Below are positions 2,837-64,000 of a stretch of 64,000 nt of DNA, piece by piece. Every line of letters starts with the position of its first letter. Positions within the stretch are counted from its first letter, which is position 1. The notes beneath the pieces are model-generated. The model worked only from the letters and a program-made list of their open reading frames with translations. It ran no database searches and was not told the DNA's origin. The stretch spans positions 17,345 through 81,344 of the forward strand of contig CALXUQ010000001.1 in NCBI GenBank assembly GCA_944391725.1, given 5' to 3'. Position numbers and translations under genes: made by a program. This stretch comes from an uncultured Alphaproteobacteria bacterium. GTDB lineage: Bacteria; Pseudomonadota; Alphaproteobacteria; RF32; CAG-239.

Positions 2837-3792
2837 GAAAAATTTGCCTTTCAGCGTTAGGAATCCTCATTGGCAGCTTGATGTCATTTTCCGCCTCAAG
2901 CCAACCGCTCACCTTCCTCACGCTCAAAGACACCACCGTAAAAGAGCTGCAAGCAATATACAATAAATATGGCTATTCTCATTATCTAATTGTTAAAGAT
3001 GCAAAGGTTCCCCCGATTTTTTTGGAGCATTTCCCTCAAGATTTCGATAAACTACCCGCCTCAGATGAGCGCAACGAACTATTTATAAGGATTGTCACTC
3101 CGCTGGCCTTAAAATTAAACCAAGAAATTATGTCCGAACGGGGACAAATGCTTGAGCTCGAAAAAAAATATCAGGCTCAAAAATCCTTGAGCCCAGAAGA
3201 AGAACAAGCTCTTGAAGCTTTAGCCAATAAATATGATGTTTTCACTCGTCTAAAAGGAGAAGAGCGGATTAAGCTGTATTTCAATCAGCTCAAAATCAAA
3301 ATCAATCAGGTATATCCATCCTTTTTAATTTCGATTGCCGCAGTTGAAACTGACTGGGGTTCATCGCGCATTGTTAAAGAAGCCAATTCATTGTATAAGG
3401 AGCTGGTCTGGCACACCCCCGAAGGCCTAACTCCTCAGGGAGAAGACGAGGATCACACTTACAAGATTCGCATTTTTCCCAATTTGTATGAATCCATGAA
3501 ATCCTATGCTTTGAAATTCAACTCCGACATCTCATACGAACACGCACGTTTTTTGCGTGATTTACGCTACCGTAGCCAGATGGTTCCCTCCGGCAAAGGC
3601 GTAGTTCATGCCATGTTATTTCAAACCCCCTTAAAAAACTATATCGGGCTCTTAGATTATACCATAACCTTTTACCAACTAATGTTGCTTGACCAAGCCA
3701 CATTAGCCACTCGATTAGAACCAAATTCGGAAATTTTAGCTCACTCCCAAGAAAATATCGCTAAAATTACACCCAAACCACCCAAACGGTAA
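2833..3792 (+). CDS. Secreted Bax-like protein with glucosaminidase (FlgJ-type) domain
   Basis: Signal peptide MRKICLSALGILIGSLMSFSASS. Motif ISIAAVETDWGSSRIVKEANSLYKE resembles the N-acetylglucosaminidase domain of Bax/FlgJ proteins. Confidence 0.65.
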   Translation: MRKICLSALGILIGSLMSFSASSQPLTFLTLKDTTVKELQAIYNKYGYSHYLIVKDAKVPPIFLEHFPQDFDKLPASDERNELFIRIVTPLALKLNQEIMSERGQMLELEKKYQAQKSLSPEEEQALEALANKYDVFTRLKGEERIKLYFNQLKIKINQVYPSFLISIAAVETDWGSSRIVKEANSLYKELVWHTPEGLTPQGEDEDHTYKIRIFPNLYESMKSYALKFNSDISYEHARFLRDLRYRSQMVPSGKGVVHAMLFQTPLKNYIGLLDYTITFYQLMLLDQATLATRLEPNSEILAHSQENIAKITPKPPKR

Positions 3793-22252: not shown

Positions 22253-22308
22253 ACTCAACATAAAAAAGAGGCCGACAAGCGACCTCATTTTATGGCGTAC
22301 CCGGAGGG
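22253..22308. repeat. Direct repeat copy 1 (56 nt): last 16 nt of tRNA-Arg plus 40 nt of its downstream flank
   Basis: ACTCAACATAAAAAAGAGGCCGACAAGCGACCTCATTTTATGGCGTACCCGGAGGG is identical to 22427-22482. Confidence 0.9.
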
Positions 22309-22426: not shown

Positions 22427-22482
22427 ACTCAACATAAAAAAGAGGCCGACAAGCGACCTCATTTTATGGCGTACCCGGAGGG
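22427..22482. repeat. Direct repeat copy 2 (56 nt), overlapping the 3' end of the intact tRNA-Arg
   Basis: Identical to 22253-22308, with a 174-nt offset. Confidence 0.9.
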
Positions 22483-41611: not shown

Positions 41612-41631
41612 TTGGCAAGGCATAAATAAGA

Positions 41632-41902
41632 TATGTAGATTTTAAATCCTCCGTAAAATCGCTCCAATAAACCCTAGACGAGCACTAAACTCCGGCACTC
41701 CTTAAAGTTCGGATAGTGGAATTAGTAGAGTAGTTTTTAGGGCGAGAAAAGCTTGAGCGTATATAGAAATACGTGCAGTCGATAGTTGGCGATTGGCAAG
41801 CACCTCGTGCGCAGACAGAGCCTTACGTGACGAGCGAGCTTGCGAGATCAACTTTTCGAGACCCGCTAAAACTGCTCTAATAACCCAAAATACGAACTTT
41901 TA
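41632..41902 (+). repeat. Hairpin-unit array C: 5'-truncated type-2 unit (about 41632-41700) plus a complete type-3 unit (41701-41902)
   Basis: The unit starts CTTAAAGTTCGGAT and ends CTCTAATAACCCAAAATACGAACTTTTA. It closely matches 63227-63429, including an identical ~85-nt internal segment. Confidence 0.85.
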
Positions 41903-43006
41903 CCCGTCTTCCAAATGCAACAACACCGACACACTAATCATCGTAACAATCAAAGTCGGCGTCCACACCGCGAGCAAACCGGGGATATCCCCATTCACCC
42001 CAAAAGCATAAATCAGTTGAGAAAGAAAATAGACCAAGAAACCAGTCGAAATTCCGCCCACAATCAAATACATCACCCCGCCGCGCCGATTGTTAGGACG
42101 CAAAGCAAACACTGCTGCCACTAAAACCATCGCACACAACAAGAAAGGAGATGCCAACAAAGACCAGTAACGGAGCTGATGTTTTTGGGCCGAAAAGCCT
42201 GATTTTTCATAAAAGCTGATAGTACCAGGCAAATTCCAAAACGAGATAGCCTCCGGCGGCACAAAATTTTCTTTGATTCTATCAATGGTCAGCTCAGTTT
42301 TATATTTAACATTGTTTGCGGTTTTAACCGGCTTTCCGGCCTCATAAATTTTGACATCGGCCAGCTCAAACATATTATTTTTAAGTGTTGCGGCAAAAGC
42401 CTGAATATTTTTGATTAGTTCGGAGTTGCGCCCCAGCTCCAAAATACTAACCCCATGCATCAACAACACATTTTTCTCTTGGCGCACAGATTTTGCCTGC
42501 AACACCAAAAAACGATCCGCATCAATGGCCTCACGCAACCATAGTCCCTTTTCAGAAAAGAGTACGGCTTTGGGGTTACGGGTTTTGAAACGATAATCAA
42601 GTGTTTCGTAGAGTTCATTCATGCGCGCGGCAATCGGATTAATCACGGTGATATTGATTACCCCGATAATAAAGGTAGTCAAAAGCACCGGCGCCAAGAA
42701 GCCCCAAATAGAAACTCCGGCGGCCCGAATAATCACAAATTCATTACTTTTACTAACCCGCCAAAACGTAATCATGGCCGCAATCATCATCACGAACGGG
42801 AACACCAATTCGAGTGTTTTAGGCAGTTTGGTAATTGCCATTTCCATCACAAACCCAAAACCGACATCATCACGACCGGAAGTACGGCGCAACAGCTCCA
42901 CCACCTCAAACAATAAGACGATTCCCATCACCATCATGAGCACGCCAAAAAAGCTAAACAAGAGCTGCTTACTTAAATATTTTCCTAAAATTGATTTTGG
43001 GTTCAT
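41900..43006 (-). CDS. LptF/LptG family LPS export permease
   Basis: 368 aa, YjgP/YjgQ-type topology (3 TM, periplasmic domain, 3 TM). Confidence 0.8.
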   Translation of the reverse strand: MNPKSILGKYLSKQLLFSFFGVLMMVMGIVLLFEVVELLRRTSGRDDVGFGFVMEMAITKLPKTLELVFPFVMMIAAMITFWRVSKSNEFVIIRAAGVSIWGFLAPVLLTTFIIGVINITVINPIAARMNELYETLDYRFKTRNPKAVLFSEKGLWLREAIDADRFLVLQAKSVRQEKNVLLMHGVSILELGRNSELIKNIQAFAATLKNNMFELADVKIYEAGKPVKTANNVKYKTELTIDRIKENFVPPEAISFWNLPGTISFYEKSGFSAQKHQLRYWSLLASPFLLCAMVLVAAVFALRPNNRRGGVMYLIVGGISTGFLVYFLSQLIYAFGVNGDIPGLLAVWTPTLIVTMISVSVLLHLEDG

Positions 43007-48120: not shown

Positions 48121-48126
48121 AAAACT

Positions 48127-48296
48127 GCACTCGGGTGAGCCGGGTGCGGAGTGTCGAAACTCCTTATACAGAAAGAAAGCTCCTTGAATGGGGAGCGACC
48201 GGTATAAGTATGTCTTGCGCATAACGAAGAAGGTCGACTGTTTCTGTATACAGTTTCGAACTCCCCGCCTTAGGAAAGCTAGGGCGGTTTCTTTTT
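48127..48296 (+). ncRNA. Conserved structured leader/ncRNA with intrinsic terminator, copy A (unclassified)
   Basis: About 95 percent identical to 62480-62646 outside one helix, which shows compensatory replacement. Ends in CCGCCTTAG-gaaag-CTAGGGCGG plus TTTCTTTTT. Lies 28 nt upstream of the HTH ORF. Confidence 0.65.
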
Positions 48297-48324
48297 AACT
48301 GGAAACCTAAAGGGAGTTTAGAAC

Positions 48325-48573
48325 ATGGGCCATCATCGCAACCGTATTAAAGCTTGGCAAGCCTGTCAAAAAGAGATTGGCGCACAAATCAAAAATATGC
48401 GCTTAGAGTTAGATTTACCTCCACAAATTGCCGCCGAACTTTTGCATATCGGACTAAACCAGCTTTTGTACCTTGAAAACGGCTATATTGGGAAAATGCA
48501 AATTACAGTTCTCCACGCCTTGGCTTATAAATATCACTATAAGTTAAAAATCAGTTTTGAGAAAAAAACATAA
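48325..48573 (+). CDS. XRE-family helix-turn-helix protein (82 aa), copy A
   Basis: AAGGGAG RBS. IGAQIKNMRLELDLPPQIAAELLHIGLNQLLYLENG fits the HTH_XRE pattern. Paralog at 62676..62924. Confidence 0.75.
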   Translation: MGHHRNRIKAWQACQKEIGAQIKNMRLELDLPPQIAAELLHIGLNQLLYLENGYIGKMQITVLHALAYKYHYKLKISFEKKT

Positions 48574-48724
48574 AGTCATCCCTCGTTTTTCAGAGAAAAA
48601 CGTCCAGGGATCTTCCGATTAAAGCGACTAACTCGAAGACCCCTTGACGACTACTAACGTAGTCGAGGGGTGACATTATTTATGTATTAGTCACCCGCTA
48701 GACGAGCTATAAACTCTGGCACTT
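48574..48724 (+). repeat. Conserved structured tail of module A
   Basis: Nearly identical to 62938-63088. Nested hairpins ATCCCT-CGTTTTTC-aga-GAAAAACG-tcc-AGGGAT, TCTTC/GAAGA, CCCCT..GACTAC-taac-GTAGTC..AGGGG and GGGTGAC/GTCACCC. Confidence 0.8.
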
Positions 48725-49066
48725 CTTAAAGGTCGGAGTTTGAGGTTATTAGAGTTCTTTTCAAGGCGAAGAAAATCCTAGCGTATATAGAAATACGTGG
48801 ATTTTCTGAGACCGCAGAAAAGAGCTCTAATAACCCAAAATACGGGCTTTAAAGTTCGGAGAATGAGTCGTATAGAGTAATTTCTAGGGGAGATGACAAT
48901 CCTAGCGTATAATAAGCTCAATCTTTGGCACAAAAAAGTTCGGAGTTTGAGGTTAGTAGAGTTCTTTTCAAGGCGAAGAAAATCCTAGCGTATATAGAAA
49001 TACGTGGATTTTCTGAGACCGCAGAAAAGAGCTCTAATAACCCAAAATACGGGCTTTAAAGTTCGG
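48725..49066 (+). repeat. Hairpin-unit array A: type-1 unit (48725-48853), truncated type-2 unit (48847-48935), type-1 unit (48935-49066)
   Basis: Units share the 5' end CTTAAAG(G/T)TCGGAG, the apex TAGCGTATATAGAAATACGTGG and the 3' end GCTCTAATAACCCAAAATACGGGCTTTAAAG. The two type-1 units are nearly identical. Confidence 0.85.
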
Positions 49067-50921
49067 GGACAGAAGAATGAGTCCTCCTCTCTTCCGCTAC
49101 CGGAGCATCGTCGTTGCGCTCTAACTTCTCGCCTTTGATAACTTGCTTGATTTCATCACCGGTCAAGGTTTCATATTCAATCAAGGCTTCGGCCAAAAGT
49201 TCCCATTCTTTGCGCTTGTCTTGCAAAATCTGCTTGGCTTCATTATAACCCGACATCACCAAAGACTTGATTTCGGCATCCACCAAACGGGCAGTATCTT
49301 CACTCATATTTTTGTTTTGGGTAACCGACTTGCCTAAAAATACTTCACCCGAATTTTCGGCATACAGCACCGGACCGAGCAAATCGCTCATGCCCCATTC
49401 GGTCACCATAGAGCGCGCCAAGTTGGTTGCCGCCGCAATATCCGAAGAAGCTCCGCTGGTCACATCATCTGCCCCAAACTTGATTTCTTCGGCCACACGT
49501 CCACCCATCATAATTGCCAAGCGCGATTTCATTTTCTGCTTCGAATAAGAATATTGGTCTTTTTCGGGCAGTTGTTGCACCATACCCAAAGCCCGTCCCC
49601 GCGGGATAATCGTTGCTTTGTGAATGGGGTCGGTTTCTTTAACATATAGCGAGCAAATCGCATGTCCGGCCTCATGATAAGCAGTGAGTTGTTTTTCTTT
49701 CTCGTCCATCGCCATTGACTTGCGCTCTGAACCCATCATCACCTTATCTTTGGCTTCATCAAAATCCTTAGAAGTAACTTTGTGCTTGTTTTTGCGCGCC
49801 GCTAATAAGGCGGCCTCGTTCACCAAGTTGGCCAAATCTGCCCCCGAAAACCCCGGAGTACCCCGAGCAATTACCGACAAATTAACATCTTTGGCTAAAG
49901 GAACTTTTTTGACATGAACTTTCAAGATTTCTTCCCGACCTTTTTTATCGGGGTTAGAAACCACCACCTGACGGTCAAAACGCCCCGGACGCAGCAAAGC
50001 CGGATCCAAAACATCGGGACGGTTGGTTGCCGCAATCAAAATCACATTTTCATTGTCTTCAAAACCATCCATCTCCACCAACAATTGGTTTAAGGTCTGT
50101 TCGCGTTCATCATTACCGCCGCCGAGTCCGGCTCCACGGTGACGTCCCACCGCATCAATTTCATCAATAAACAACAGGCAAGGAGCATTTTTTTTGGCTT
50201 GAGCAAACATATCCCGCACTCGCGAGGCACCCACACCCACAAACATCTCCACAAAATCTGAACCCGAAATTGAAAAGAACGGCACATTTGCCTCACCGGC
50301 CACGGCTTTAGCAATTAGGGTTTTACCGGTTCCCGGAGGTCCAACCAGCAACACGCCTTTGGGGATTTTGCCGCCCAAACGCTGGAATTTTGCCGGTTCT
50401 TTCAAAAAGTCGATTACCTCTTCGAGTTCTTGTTTGGCCTCATCGGCACCGGCCACATCGTCAAACGTAACTTTTTTGGTATTTTCAATCAACCGCGCAC
50501 GTGATTTTCCAAAACTCATGGCTTTGTTGTTGCCCGAACTGGCCTGACGCATAAAGAAAATCCACACGCCGATTAGCAAAATCATCGGGAACCAAGAAAT
50601 CAGCACTCCCCAAAACGTATTAGCCGAAGTATCTTCCGGACGCGCCTCCACTTTGGCACCGCTATTTCGCAAGGTTTCAATCATGGTCGGGTCATATGGG
50701 GCATAAGTACTAAACTTGGTACCATCGGTTGCCGTACCCATAATATTTGCCCCCTCAATCATCACCTCGCTGATTTGCTTGTTTTCGGCTTTGGTCATAA
50801 AGTCCGAAAAAGCCATTGTCTGATAACCACGACTTTGCGGATTATTGCTAAACATATTCATAATTGCGGAGAGCAGCACAATTGCCACCAGCCAAATAAT
50901 GATACTTTTTCCTGATTTCAT
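49056..50921 (-). CDS. ftsH: ATP-dependent zinc metalloprotease FtsH
   Basis: 621 aa. GPPGTGKT Walker A. HEAGHA zinc motif. Two N-terminal TM segments. Confidence 0.97.
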
Positions 50922-62386: not shown

Positions 62387-62409
62387 GCAATAAAAAGAAT
62401 TAATTTTTG

Positions 62410-62443
62410 CACTACTTACCGGAAAGGGTAAGTAGTGTTTTTT
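62410..62443 (+). terminator. Rho-independent terminator of grpE
   Basis: CACTACTTACC-ggaaag-GGTAAGTAGTG followed by TTTTTT. Confidence 0.85.
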
Positions 62444-62472: not shown

Positions 62473-62479
62473 AGGAGAT

Positions 62480-62646
62480 GCACTCGGGAGAGCCTGGTGC
62501 GGAGTATCGAAACTCCTCGTATGAAAGAATAGCTCCTTGAATGGGGAGCGACCGGAATAAGTGTGCCTTGCGCATAACGAAGAAGGTCGACTGACATACG
62601 CAGTTTCGAACTCCCCGCCTTAGGAAAGCTAGGGCGGTTTCTTTTT
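62480..62646 (+). ncRNA. Conserved structured leader/ncRNA with intrinsic terminator, copy B (unclassified)
   Basis: Same architecture as 48127-48296. The helix CGTATG (62518-62523) / CATACG (62595-62600) replaces TATACAGAAA/TTTCTGTATA of copy A. Identical terminator at 62615-62646. Confidence 0.65.
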
Positions 62647-62675
62647 AACTAGAAACCTAAAGGGAGTTTAGAGCT

Positions 62676-62924
62676 ATGGGACGTTATAGTAAACGAATTA
62701 AATCTTGGCAGGAATGCCGCAAAGAAATTGGCGAAAAGATTAAGGACATGCGATTAGAGTTGGATTTATCGCCCGAAACCGCCGCCGAAATTTTGCATAT
62801 TGGCACCAAACATTTATGTTGCTTAGAAAATGGCGACATCCGTAAAATGGAAATCTCTTATCTCCATTCTATAGCTTATAAATATAGCTATAAGTTAAAG
62901 ATAAGCTTTGAGAAAAAGAATTAG
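62676..62924 (+). CDS. XRE-family helix-turn-helix protein (82 aa), copy B
   Basis: AAGGGAG RBS. IGEKIKDMRLELDLSPETAAEILHIGTKHLCCLENG. 54 of 82 residues identical to copy A by hand count. Confidence 0.75.
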   Translation: MGRYSKRIKSWQECRKEIGEKIKDMRLELDLSPETAAEILHIGTKHLCCLENGDIRKMEISYLHSIAYKYSYKLKISFEKKN

Positions 62925-62937
62925 AAAAAACAAAAAA

Positions 62938-63088
62938 AGTCATCCCTCGTTTTTCAGAGAAAAACGTCCAGGGATCTTCCGATTAAAGCGACTAACTCGA
63001 AGACCCCTTGACGACTACTAATGTAGTCGAGGGGTGACATTATTTATATATTAGTCACCCGCTAGACGAGTTTTAAACTCTGGCACGG
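62938..63088 (+). repeat. Conserved structured tail of module B
   Basis: Differs from 48574-48724 at only a handful of positions. Confidence 0.8.
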
Positions 63089-63543
63089 CTTAAAGTTCGG
63101 AGAATGAGTCGTATAGAGTGATTTCTTTGGCGATGACAATCCTAGCGTATAAAGAAATACGTGGATTGGCATCTACCCCGTAAAATTGCTCTAATAAACC
63201 AAAATAAACTTTAACCTCAGGCACAGCTTAAAGTTCGGATAGTGGATTTAGTAGAGTAGTTTTTAGGGCGAGAAAAATTTTAGTGTAGATAAACCTACAT
63301 GCAGTCGATAGTTGGCGATTGGCAAGCACCTCGTGCGCAGACAGAGCCTTACGTGACGAGCGAGCTTGCGAGATCAACTTTTCGAGACCCGCTAAAACTG
63401 CTCTAATAAACCGCTAGACGAACTTTAAGGTAAATTGTGATATGTGAGTCGAATAGTAAGAAATTAGGAATTTTGCGACTGAGTGTATAAAGAAATACAC
63501 GATTGGAGCAAAATATCCGACATTTCTGTACTAGTCGACCACA
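63089..63543 (+). repeat. Hairpin-unit array B: type-2 unit (63089-63213), type-3 unit (63227-63429), degenerate type-2-like unit (about 63424-63543)
   Basis: Same conserved termini and apex as arrays A and C. The type-3 unit has 11-nt terminal inverted repeats, CTTAAAGTTCG ... CGAACTTTAAG. Confidence 0.85.
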
Positions 63544-63553
63544 GAGCACAATT

Positions 63554-64000
63554 TTATATCATGGCCATACCACCATTAATATTAATAGTCTGTCCGGTGA
63601 TATATTGAGCTTCATCAGATGCTAAGAAAGCAACCACATTGGCAATGTCTTGAGCTTCACCAAGTTTGCCTTCCGGAATTTTAGCCAACAAAGCAGCTTT
63701 CACATCTTCTGGCAAAACATCGGTCATCGGAGTACGAATGAAACCCGGAGCAATCGAGTTAACCGTAATTCCGCGAGAACCAACTTCTTGAGCCAAACAT
63801 TTGTTCATGGCAATCATACCGGCTTTTGAAGCAGAATAGTTAGCTTGTCCGGCATTTCCGGTAACACCAACCACCGAAGCAATACCGATAATACGACCAT
63901 AGCGGCGTTTCATCATACCGCGAACGGCAGCTTTAGCCAATTTGAAACCAGCCGAAAGGTTAACATCGAGCACCAACTGCCAGTCTTCATCACTCATCCG
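63554..64000 (-). CDS. fabG: 3-oxoacyl-[acyl-carrier-protein] reductase FabG, N-terminal part beyond window edge
   Basis: YSASKAG active site. C-terminal TGQTININGGMAMI. The ORF stays open to the window end. Confidence 0.85.
   Translation of the reverse strand, partial: RMSDEDWQLVLDVNLSAGFKLAKAAVRGMMKRRYGRIIGIASVVGVTGNAGQANYSASKAGMIAMNKCLAQEVGSRGITVNSIAPGFIRTPMTDVLPEDVKAALLAKIPEGKLGEAQDIANVVAFLASDEAQYITGQTININGGMAMI

Follow-up and report, generated by a model that had tools for sequence, protein, structure and literature searches.

The described repeats closest in kind to the element reported here are the REPs and REPINs, the bacterial MITEs and the attC sites of integrons. A REPIN is built from two conserved inverted REPs of 20–40 bp around a variable spacer, BIMEs alternate in orientation, and attC sites are recognised as folded single strands, the functional strand being antisense to the upstream open reading frame (ORF). 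Here we describe, from a stretch of 64,000 nucleotides of an uncultured alphaproteobacterium (contig CALXUQ010000001.1, positions 17,345 to 81,344 of the forward strand; hereafter the window), a previously uncatalogued family of long hairpin units, which we tentatively regard as a replicating element and of which the window contains, at three loci and always on the + strand, six full members, one truncated member and remnants. The gene content of the window suggests a Gram-negative, alphaproteobacterium-like host. The family lacks at least one tested defining feature of REP/BIME, of REPIN and of attC, while the inverted repeats of MITEs are present. It would add a well-defined hairpin repeat family to the few known in bacteria, from uncultured gut and rumen-like lineages.

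Like REPs and REPINs, the units are non-coding, multi-copy and intergenic, lying mostly at gene 3' ends; in both, compensatory change maintains a hairpin of about 100 nt, near-identical copies form populations, clusters are mosaic and vertical persistence is long. Each unit is, however, one continuous rod of about 50 bp with fixed internal loops rather than a pair of REPs, and it is the apex that is conserved while the arms covary, so that the REPIN layout of two conserved inverted REPs flanking a variable spacer is not seen. Whereas BIMEs alternate, the units of every array share one orientation; the hairpin foot bears no GTAG/CGTC tag (GTAG occurs only inside some apical stems), and there is no RAYT among the window ORFs scanned. 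Like MITEs and other long palindromic repeats (Correia/NEMIS, ERIC/IRU, RUP, BOX, Rickettsia RPE and Rhizobium RIME), the units are 100–200 bp long, end in inverted repeats, are predicted to give hairpin transcripts, exist in modular or chimeric versions and are inserted beside or into gene ends; ORFs that read into the unit, as reported for RPE and the enterobacterial repeat units, are a further likeness. They differ from these in that no parent insertion sequence or clear target duplication was found, in that conservation lies at the apex and not in the terminal repeats, and in a strict orientation of the neighbouring gene, whose stop codon they abut; the collections searched gave no sequence match. 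A conserved apex with covarying arms, structural signatures confined to one strand and a strict stop-codon position thus distinguish the family from REP, REPIN and MITE alike.

Searches of reference collections gave no known counterpart. Against Rfam 15 only transfer RNA (tRNA) passes the gathering threshold and nothing does so over the units, a permissive search yielding only chance-level matches; neither plasmids and phages (by BLAST) nor viral contigs (by apex scan) contained a match to the units. A 5'-arm pattern returned six single matches in unrelated taxa among representative genomes, by our estimate about the number expected by chance, in a collection that does not include the species itself. 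The literature searched yielded no described family with these properties.

Hairpin units at three loci of the window

We scored units with R1, a covariance model built from a 32-unit alignment (43 consensus pairs, 35 of them changed on both sides), whose true matches reach 60–136 bits and whose opposite-strand echoes reach 28–59 bits. The region 63089–63543 (locus C), in which a sequence-only reading had proposed a modular repeat family with compensatory apex changes, consists of three head-to-tail hairpin units, C1, C2 and C3. C1 (63089–63226, + strand; R1 match 63085–63217, 86.5 bits) is a chimera in which a type-1 5' arm and the apex CGTAT-AAAGAA-ATACG are joined to a type-2/3 3' arm; it is without the CGAACTTTAAG end, its outer arms are unmatched, and a 12-nt linker (..CCTCAGGCACAG) follows. 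C2 (63227–63430, + strand; R1 match 63223–63431), a long type-3 unit, is an ordinary type-3 hairpin with the apex TGTAG-ATAAAC-CTACA (63284–63299) into which a GC-rich insert of 77 nt (63302–63378) has been placed just 3' of the apical stem. C3 (63431–63553, + strand) belongs to a second subfamily, is matched by R1 without filters at 63425–63559 (65 bits, E = 7e-13) and carries the apex GTGTAT-AAAGAA-ATACAC at 63483–63500; its 3' end reaches into the FabG stop codon (63554–63556, – strand). The apices are therefore as first read but for the C1 loop, which had been given as ATAGAA, the loop of units B1 and B3, and is in fact AAAGAA.

Locus B likewise has three units. B1 (48725–48854, + strand; 123.5 bits with R1) is of type 2, with the apex CGTAT-ATAGAA-ATACG; B2 (48848–48932, + strand; 48849–48915 by nhmmer with C1 as the query, E = 5e-10) is of type 1 and is cut off just past the 5' half of the apex; and B3 (48933–49062, + strand), again of type 2 with the loop ATAGAA, is 98% identical to B1 and has a terminal TTTAA that includes the FtsH stop codon (49056–49058, – strand). 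Loci B and C are two copies of a larger module (48126–49062 and 62479–63553) that runs from a promoter-like region through a structured leader of about 155 nt with an intrinsic terminator, an 82-aa helix-turn-helix (HTH) gene and about 150 nt with two small hairpins to the long-hairpin array. Locus A (41630–41902, + strand) has no HTH gene and comprises a remnant 3' arm with linker (41630–41700) and one long type-3 unit, A1 (41701–41902), the end of which includes the LptF/G stop codon (41900–41902, – strand). A1 and C2 are 91% identical over 41686–41900 and have the 77-nt insert in common; the insert, identical in the two (41776–41852 and 63302–63378), has small hairpins of its own and occurs in a shorter version in a related contig (L005).

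The units are 118–204 nt long and each forms one long rod. The 5' motif CTTAAAGTTCGGA is exact at 63089, 63227 and 41701, with near-matches at 48725, 48848 and 49055, all on the + strand; allowing up to 2 mismatches it has 12 matches against 2.1 expected. The 3' motif GCTCTAATAAMCC lies at 41874, 48824, 49031, 63188 and 63400, on the + strand only. The terminal inverted repeats of the window units are CTTAAAGTTCG and CGAACTTTAAG, and in C2 the two ends (63227–63248 with 63408–63429) are 82% complementary, so the shared, mutually inverted ends proposed earlier are borne out. Without filters R1 recovers full-length matches at 48721–48855 and 48928–49062 in addition to those over C1 and C3, all on the + strand, and matches the long units in part (41723–41882 in A1, 63249–63408 in C2); at default filters it scores both long units full-length on the + strand (A1 at 41697–41905). 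Matches on the – strand of the window are weak palindrome echoes only.

At 49055–49090 the last ten or so codons of ftsH (– strand) overlap a match to the type-1 5' arm, consisting of TTTAAAGTTCGG, a 7-nt insertion and AGAATGAGTC; from the sequence, the C-terminus of this essential gene may be of unit-derived origin.

Covariation, strand asymmetry and the stop codon

A degenerate apex pattern, run over metagenome contigs, picked out 47 loci in human-gut and other metagenome assemblies, some with contig names that suggest rumen-type samples, and at about 43 of the 47 the match proved to be a full-length hairpin with the same layout of stems, loops and bulge and very different arms. Further related loci came from dozens of gut metagenome contigs gathered through exact-protein look-ups. 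Over 490 kb, R1 identifies about 55 units, including copies that lack the search pattern and tandem neighbours.

Pairing is conserved in this family where sequence is not. In a 47-pair structure common to the nine distinct local units, 95.7% of cells are paired; shuffles give 84.7%, and none of 500 attains the value observed. Of the 47 pairs, 16 are changed on both sides, compared with 1–4 in slid controls. Among 50 distinct members, rod-like hairpins of about 135 nt, the paired share of cells is 93.5%, compared with 69.8% after shuffling; both sides have changed in 38 of 43 pairs, and covariation scores 0.627 where shuffles give 0.209 and slid controls 0.10–0.20. Both the local and the family counts thus uphold the earlier claim of compensatory change. 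The possibility that structure is under no selection, the units being neutral palindromes or an artefact of assembly, draws on the fact that palindromes fold on both strands by construction, the – strand also folding far better than shuffles; the same units nevertheless appear in many independent assemblies from different studies, their covariation lies far above both kinds of control and their wobbles are conserved, and we give this explanation next to no weight.

The common architecture can be followed from base to tip. An outer stem is formed by the element ends, TTAAAGTTCG/CGAACTTTAA in the window and an A-run with a T-run in relatives, whose ends read A-run...CNCG / CGNG...T-run. Above it lie a 3x3 loop (GAG/AUA) and a purine-purine mismatch or tandem G.A, then the conserved box UAGAGU/GCUCUA with its closing U.G pair, an AU-rich stem and, between two conserved wobbles, a UA bulge; the tip is an apical stem of 5–6 bp with an AWRRAM hexaloop. 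The apical stem and hexaloop are the most conserved part, and the arms covary freely; since the search pattern fixed the apex, this conservation is partly by construction, and the pattern-free R1 matches have similar apices. A small ORF starting from the RTG of the conserved apex was rejected by eye, stop positions varying between units (in L061 a stop follows after 3 codons), and no convincing promoter was found before the units.

The two strands are not equivalent. In the nine local units G.T occurs in 10 pair columns (31 cells) and A.C in 2 columns (3 cells), in agreement with the strand-specific wobbles reported earlier, and two wobbles are invariant: the U.G closing the TAGAGT/GCTCTA box and a G.U at the base of the apical stem. 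Across the family G67.U181 persists as a wobble in 47 of 49 copies, and U63.G185 is U.G in 32 copies and C-G in 13; these are the two that border the UA bulge. On the unit strand purines predominate in the internal loops (GAG/AUA; tandem G.A or A.G), where the other strand would present pyrimidine mismatches (C.T). Mutation bias is unlikely to lie behind the G.T excess, as deamination of the sense or leading strand would be expected to enrich G.T on the other strand.

Folding energies lean the same way. B1 folds at –61.4 kcal/mol (z = –10.3 against shuffles; –49.4 on the – strand), C2 at –81.6 kcal/mol on the + strand and –66.6 on the –, and C3 at –41.0 kcal/mol (z = –7.7), while the weak fold of C1 (–32.7 kcal/mol, z = –2.7) reflects the joining of a type-1 5' arm to a type-2/3 3' arm. 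By RNAfold the unit strand is the stabler in 39 of 44 non-redundant units as listed; as two of these rows are echoes from the reverse strand, the figure becomes about 41 of 44 once corrected. The difference averages –8.8 kcal/mol (Wilcoxon p = 1.4e-7), and DNA energy parameters give the same direction of asymmetry. Selection on one specific strand, folded as a single strand, is thereby supported. Of the earlier suggestion of selection on a +-strand RNA hairpin, the one-strand fold holds, on the evidence of wobbles, loops and energies; because DNA parameters yield the same asymmetry and folded single-stranded DNA sites such as attC share the logic, the strand could be RNA or DNA. That the units of the three loci share an orientation, also noted earlier, would alone be weak evidence, coming from one window; the strong evidence comes from the related contigs, in 267 kb of which all units lie on the HTH strand.

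The position of the units obeys a rule that extends what had been noted. In 48 of 51 unit instances, and at 38 of 41 de-duplicated loci, the next gene past the 3' end of the array is encoded on the strand opposite to the units; at 33 of these 38 loci its stop codon is touched or overlapped by the final unit. The strand that folds better is thus antisense to the abutted gene, a relation that, with the stop-codon rule, goes beyond the sequence-only reading. TAA serves as the stop codon in 32 of 34 cases, with the outer stem directly after it, so that the junction reads ...NNN-TAA-AAA-stem... on the gene strand. A few ORFs extend into the unit and end at its TATAA loop. All three window loci follow the rule, at ftsH, lptF/G and fabG. 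The gene upstream of the array is co-oriented in 22 cases and opposite in 19.

Strand and position together recall attC, and the units could in principle be folded single-stranded DNA recombination sites of this kind, read by structure with a tyrosine recombinase encoded elsewhere. Both are imperfect palindromes of similar size (about 130 nt for the units) that keep structure over sequence, sit at stop codons and present a strand antisense to a gene; the apex, with 5-bp inverted repeats around a 6-bp spacer, resembles a recombinase core site, and the asymmetry survives in DNA parameters. The likeness is one of layout, however: the R'' (RYYYAAC) and R' (GTTRRRY) boxes are absent, unit ends being GTTCG...CGAAC (...AAAGTTCGG / CCGAACTTT...) or an A-run and T-run; attC conserves its base and varies its tip, the reverse of the units; and the neighbours are not cassettes but dispersed housekeeping genes (ftsH, fabG, lptF/G, gyrB, proS, pheT and accD), with no integron integrase or attI seen in the window. 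We consider an attC-like function improbable.

Proposed readings: a replicating hairpin or a host RNA element

Preserved pairing, fixed loop geometry and one-strand wobbles show that selection acts on a single strand in its folded form, and that this form is recognised by something. We favour, with a probability of roughly 45%, the view that the units are a REPIN/MITE-like element that replicates and recombines and whose active form is this folded strand; mobility itself and a trans-acting factor are what we infer. Subfamilies with near-identical dispersed copies, chimeras, nested inserts, arrays that vary between strains and ORFs that end in units all fit a replicator. A single assembly (ERZ1034878) contains several subfamilies, each with near-identical copies. 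At orthologous loci the number and type of units differ between strains: one contig (L055) has a non-chimeric version at the C1 site (–63.9 kcal/mol), C3 is missing at the orthologous site in L055 and L045, type 3 occurs without the insert as a short form in L045 and L007, and chimeric units are also found in strains (for example L007_u1).

Under such a scheme a trans-acting factor would recognise the conserved apex and loops on the folded strand, a transposase or recombinase in the case of DNA, an RNA-binding protein or nuclease in the case of RNA. New copies would insert at or beside TAA/TTAA, in fixed orientation, onto the stop codon of an opposite-strand gene, and recombination within the conserved centre would generate chimeras and make arrays grow and shrink. 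The junctions share TTAA or T[A-run]...[T-run]A, compatible with a TA or TTAA target and inseparable from an extended palindrome.

Several observations weigh against a replicator. The 64-kb window yielded no transposase, RAYT or integrase in a scan of most of its ORFs of 150 aa or more, in which every ORF with a match is housekeeping; nor did the window or about 490 kb of related loci show, at the nucleotide level, a parent insertion sequence sharing the unit ends. A clean target-site duplication or empty site could not be defined; C3, which the window has and L055 lacks, does not amount to a clean insertion. The apex is conserved and the arms covary, whereas REPINs and MITEs usually conserve their arms or ends, and pairing and loop geometry are kept copy by copy despite diverged arms, which fits a host function at each site about equally well. 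Outside the two conserved wobbles G.U counts are nearly equal by strand (an estimated ~100 versus 91), and the asymmetry is therefore mainly that of a small conserved motif and purine-rich loops rather than a general wobble excess. Finally, the order GrpE–HTH–array–FabG is kept in a lineage whose HTH protein is only 33% identical, which, as a matter of gene order, points to long residence rather than recent insertion. In that lineage (L059 at 1193–2090, also L069) the leader, the HTH gene and two units are followed by a convergent gene ending MAMI*, like fabG of the window; retention of the leader–HTH–array arrangement at such a distance makes it old.

A host-functional RNA element at gene boundaries explains the same data nearly as well. 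It would be a bidirectional terminator or insulator, or a structured antisense RNA ending at the neighbour's stop codon, its apex bound by a host protein or engaged in loop-to-loop pairing with a complementary hairpin in the neighbour's 3' untranslated region (UTR). Every copy keeps its pairing, loop geometry and wobbles despite very different arms, and position and orientation at stop codons are fixed, as such an element would lead one to expect. Most relatives have an A-run, stem and U-run layout, with a 5' A-run and a 3' T-run flanking the unit as in a bidirectional intrinsic terminator, and in one contig (L074) a single unit nearly fills the gap between two convergent genes. In this respect the units resemble the repeat-derived terminators (TRIT of Mycobacterium; the uptake-sequence pairs of Neisseria and Haemophilus), repeated hairpins that lie just past stop codons, although the stem of the units is far longer, with conserved loops and wobbles and tandem arrays, and it is the strand antisense to the adjacent gene that folds better. 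At loci B and C, moreover, the leader (with its terminator and anti-Shine–Dalgarno sequence) and the HTH gene upstream would offer a regulated source of unit-strand transcripts; because the arrays lie downstream of the leader–HTH module, they are probably transcribed there, in the well-folding orientation, as the HTH 3' UTR. Against this, the window units end in TTTAAAG, with no U-run, and the organism uses ordinary terminators elsewhere (after GrpE at 62409–62438, in the leader and after ProRS in L017); about half of the loci have no co-oriented upstream gene to supply unit-strand transcripts; and tandem arrays, chimeras, nested inserts and strain differences are unexpected of a simple terminator. 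On balance we hold a host RNA element to be somewhat unlikely, and we retain the replicating hairpin as the better account.

The family makes the choice between selfish single-strand replicators and host RNA elements testable. It has a practical side as well, as the arrays break metagenome assemblies: many metagenome contigs end within them, and R1 is able to annotate them.

The leader–HTH module and other features

The HTH module occurs in at least seven chromosomal contexts, in which the next gene is always convergent (ftsH, fabG, proS, accD, gyrB, pheT or an unknown gene). In the window the copy at locus B (48126–48724, + strand) comprises the leader (48126–48322), the HTH gene (48325–48573) and the post-HTH hairpins with linker, and that at locus C the leader (62479–62675, + strand), with an intrinsic terminator at 62615–62637 plus T-run and a ribosome-binding site, and the gene for the 82-aa XRE-type HTH protein (62676–62924, + strand). 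In nucleotide sequence the HTH genes of the two copies share only 72% identity, against about 99% for their flanks. The protein matches Pfam HTH_25 and HTH_37 below curated cutoffs, finds the 434 repressor, SinR, HigA2 and C.BclI in a profile search of the PDB, and is modelled by AlphaFold as four helices (pLDDT, the model's confidence score, 77.6).

The sequence-only reading had also offered the apex as an operator for this protein. On that account the apices would be double-stranded operators or decoys, and the covariation of the apex would express the half-site symmetry of a dimer. The 434 operator is an inverted repeat with a spacer, and the layout of the apex (5 bp - N6 - 5 bp) comes close to it, a geometry compatible with a dimer; the protein is a classical XRE/434-type HTH, and its alleles differ mostly in the recognition helix. 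Such binding would nonetheless leave some 45 further covarying arm pairs, the one-strand wobbles and the purine loops unexplained. The same HTH allele stands beside different apex types, with no one-to-one link between allele and apex; HTH modules occur without units (L017, L035), and in other lineages tblastn and nhmmer place an HTH gene or leader beside units only in L059/L069. The HTH family is moreover tiny, with 18 matches among 1.84 billion representative proteins, and the sites lie downstream of the HTH gene rather than at its promoter. We judge an operator role decidedly improbable. Across strains the HTH protein is a mosaic of a few allelic blocks with most variation in the predicted recognition helix, and an identical protein (P0056) is encoded at two chromosomal sites. 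Five larger proteins of 440–517 aa (P0085, P0088, P0089, P0093 and P0097) contain three to five tandem stretches that resemble it.

The leader has no Rfam match. It gives 54 nhmmer matches, all on the HTH strand, and shows covariation in several helices across 16 distinct copies; one helix changes from GUCGAAAC/GUUUCGA to GUAGUAAC/GUUACUA and GUCACAAC/GUUGUGA. It is also seen in L017, L028, L033, L045, L059 and L087. A GGGGAG/CUCCCC pairing is predicted to be able to compete with the terminator, and a AGCUCCUU stretch to be able to pair with the ribosome-binding site; judged by these features, the leader looks like a candidate riboswitch or attenuator. A broader proposal would make the family a class of structured RNAs of about 135 nt, antisense to many gene 3' ends, with the apical loop and bulge as the recognition motif: unit transcripts would pair with hairpins in messenger RNA 3' UTRs or recruit a common protein, and the arrays transcribed from the leader–HTH module would amount to a leader-switched, genome-wide post-transcriptional control. 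We regard this as quite unlikely.

Between HTH gene and array, the non-coding stretch 62925–63088 (+ strand) is about 99% identical to 48574–48724 and contains the hairpins GTCATCCCTCG..CGTCCAGGGAT and GACCCCTTGACGACTAC-TAAT-GTAGTCGAGGGGTGAC, followed by a unit-like 3' arm, TTAGTCACCCGCTAGACGAG, and a linker. Both small hairpins (48574–48690 and 62938–63050) show compensatory change in L007, L008, L028 and L045, and in L007 and L027 the first is duplicated, with one copy nested in another. At the accD and gyrB loci of related contigs (L027 at 3500–3760, L028 at 3440–3560, L029 and L030) another GC-rich repeat (…CGCTCTACTGGTAGCATCGCGGATACAGGGCACATACGC…CCGCCGCGC…) replaces the long hairpins after the HTH module.

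Elsewhere in the window, a perfect direct repeat of 56 nt occurs at 22253–22308 and 22427–22482, 174 nt apart. The second copy takes in the 3' end of tRNA-Arg(CCG) together with the hairpin downstream of it, and a T-arm-like GGTTCAAATCC lies between the copies; the repeat could be the remnant of a tRNA-integrated element, or else a partial tRNA duplication.

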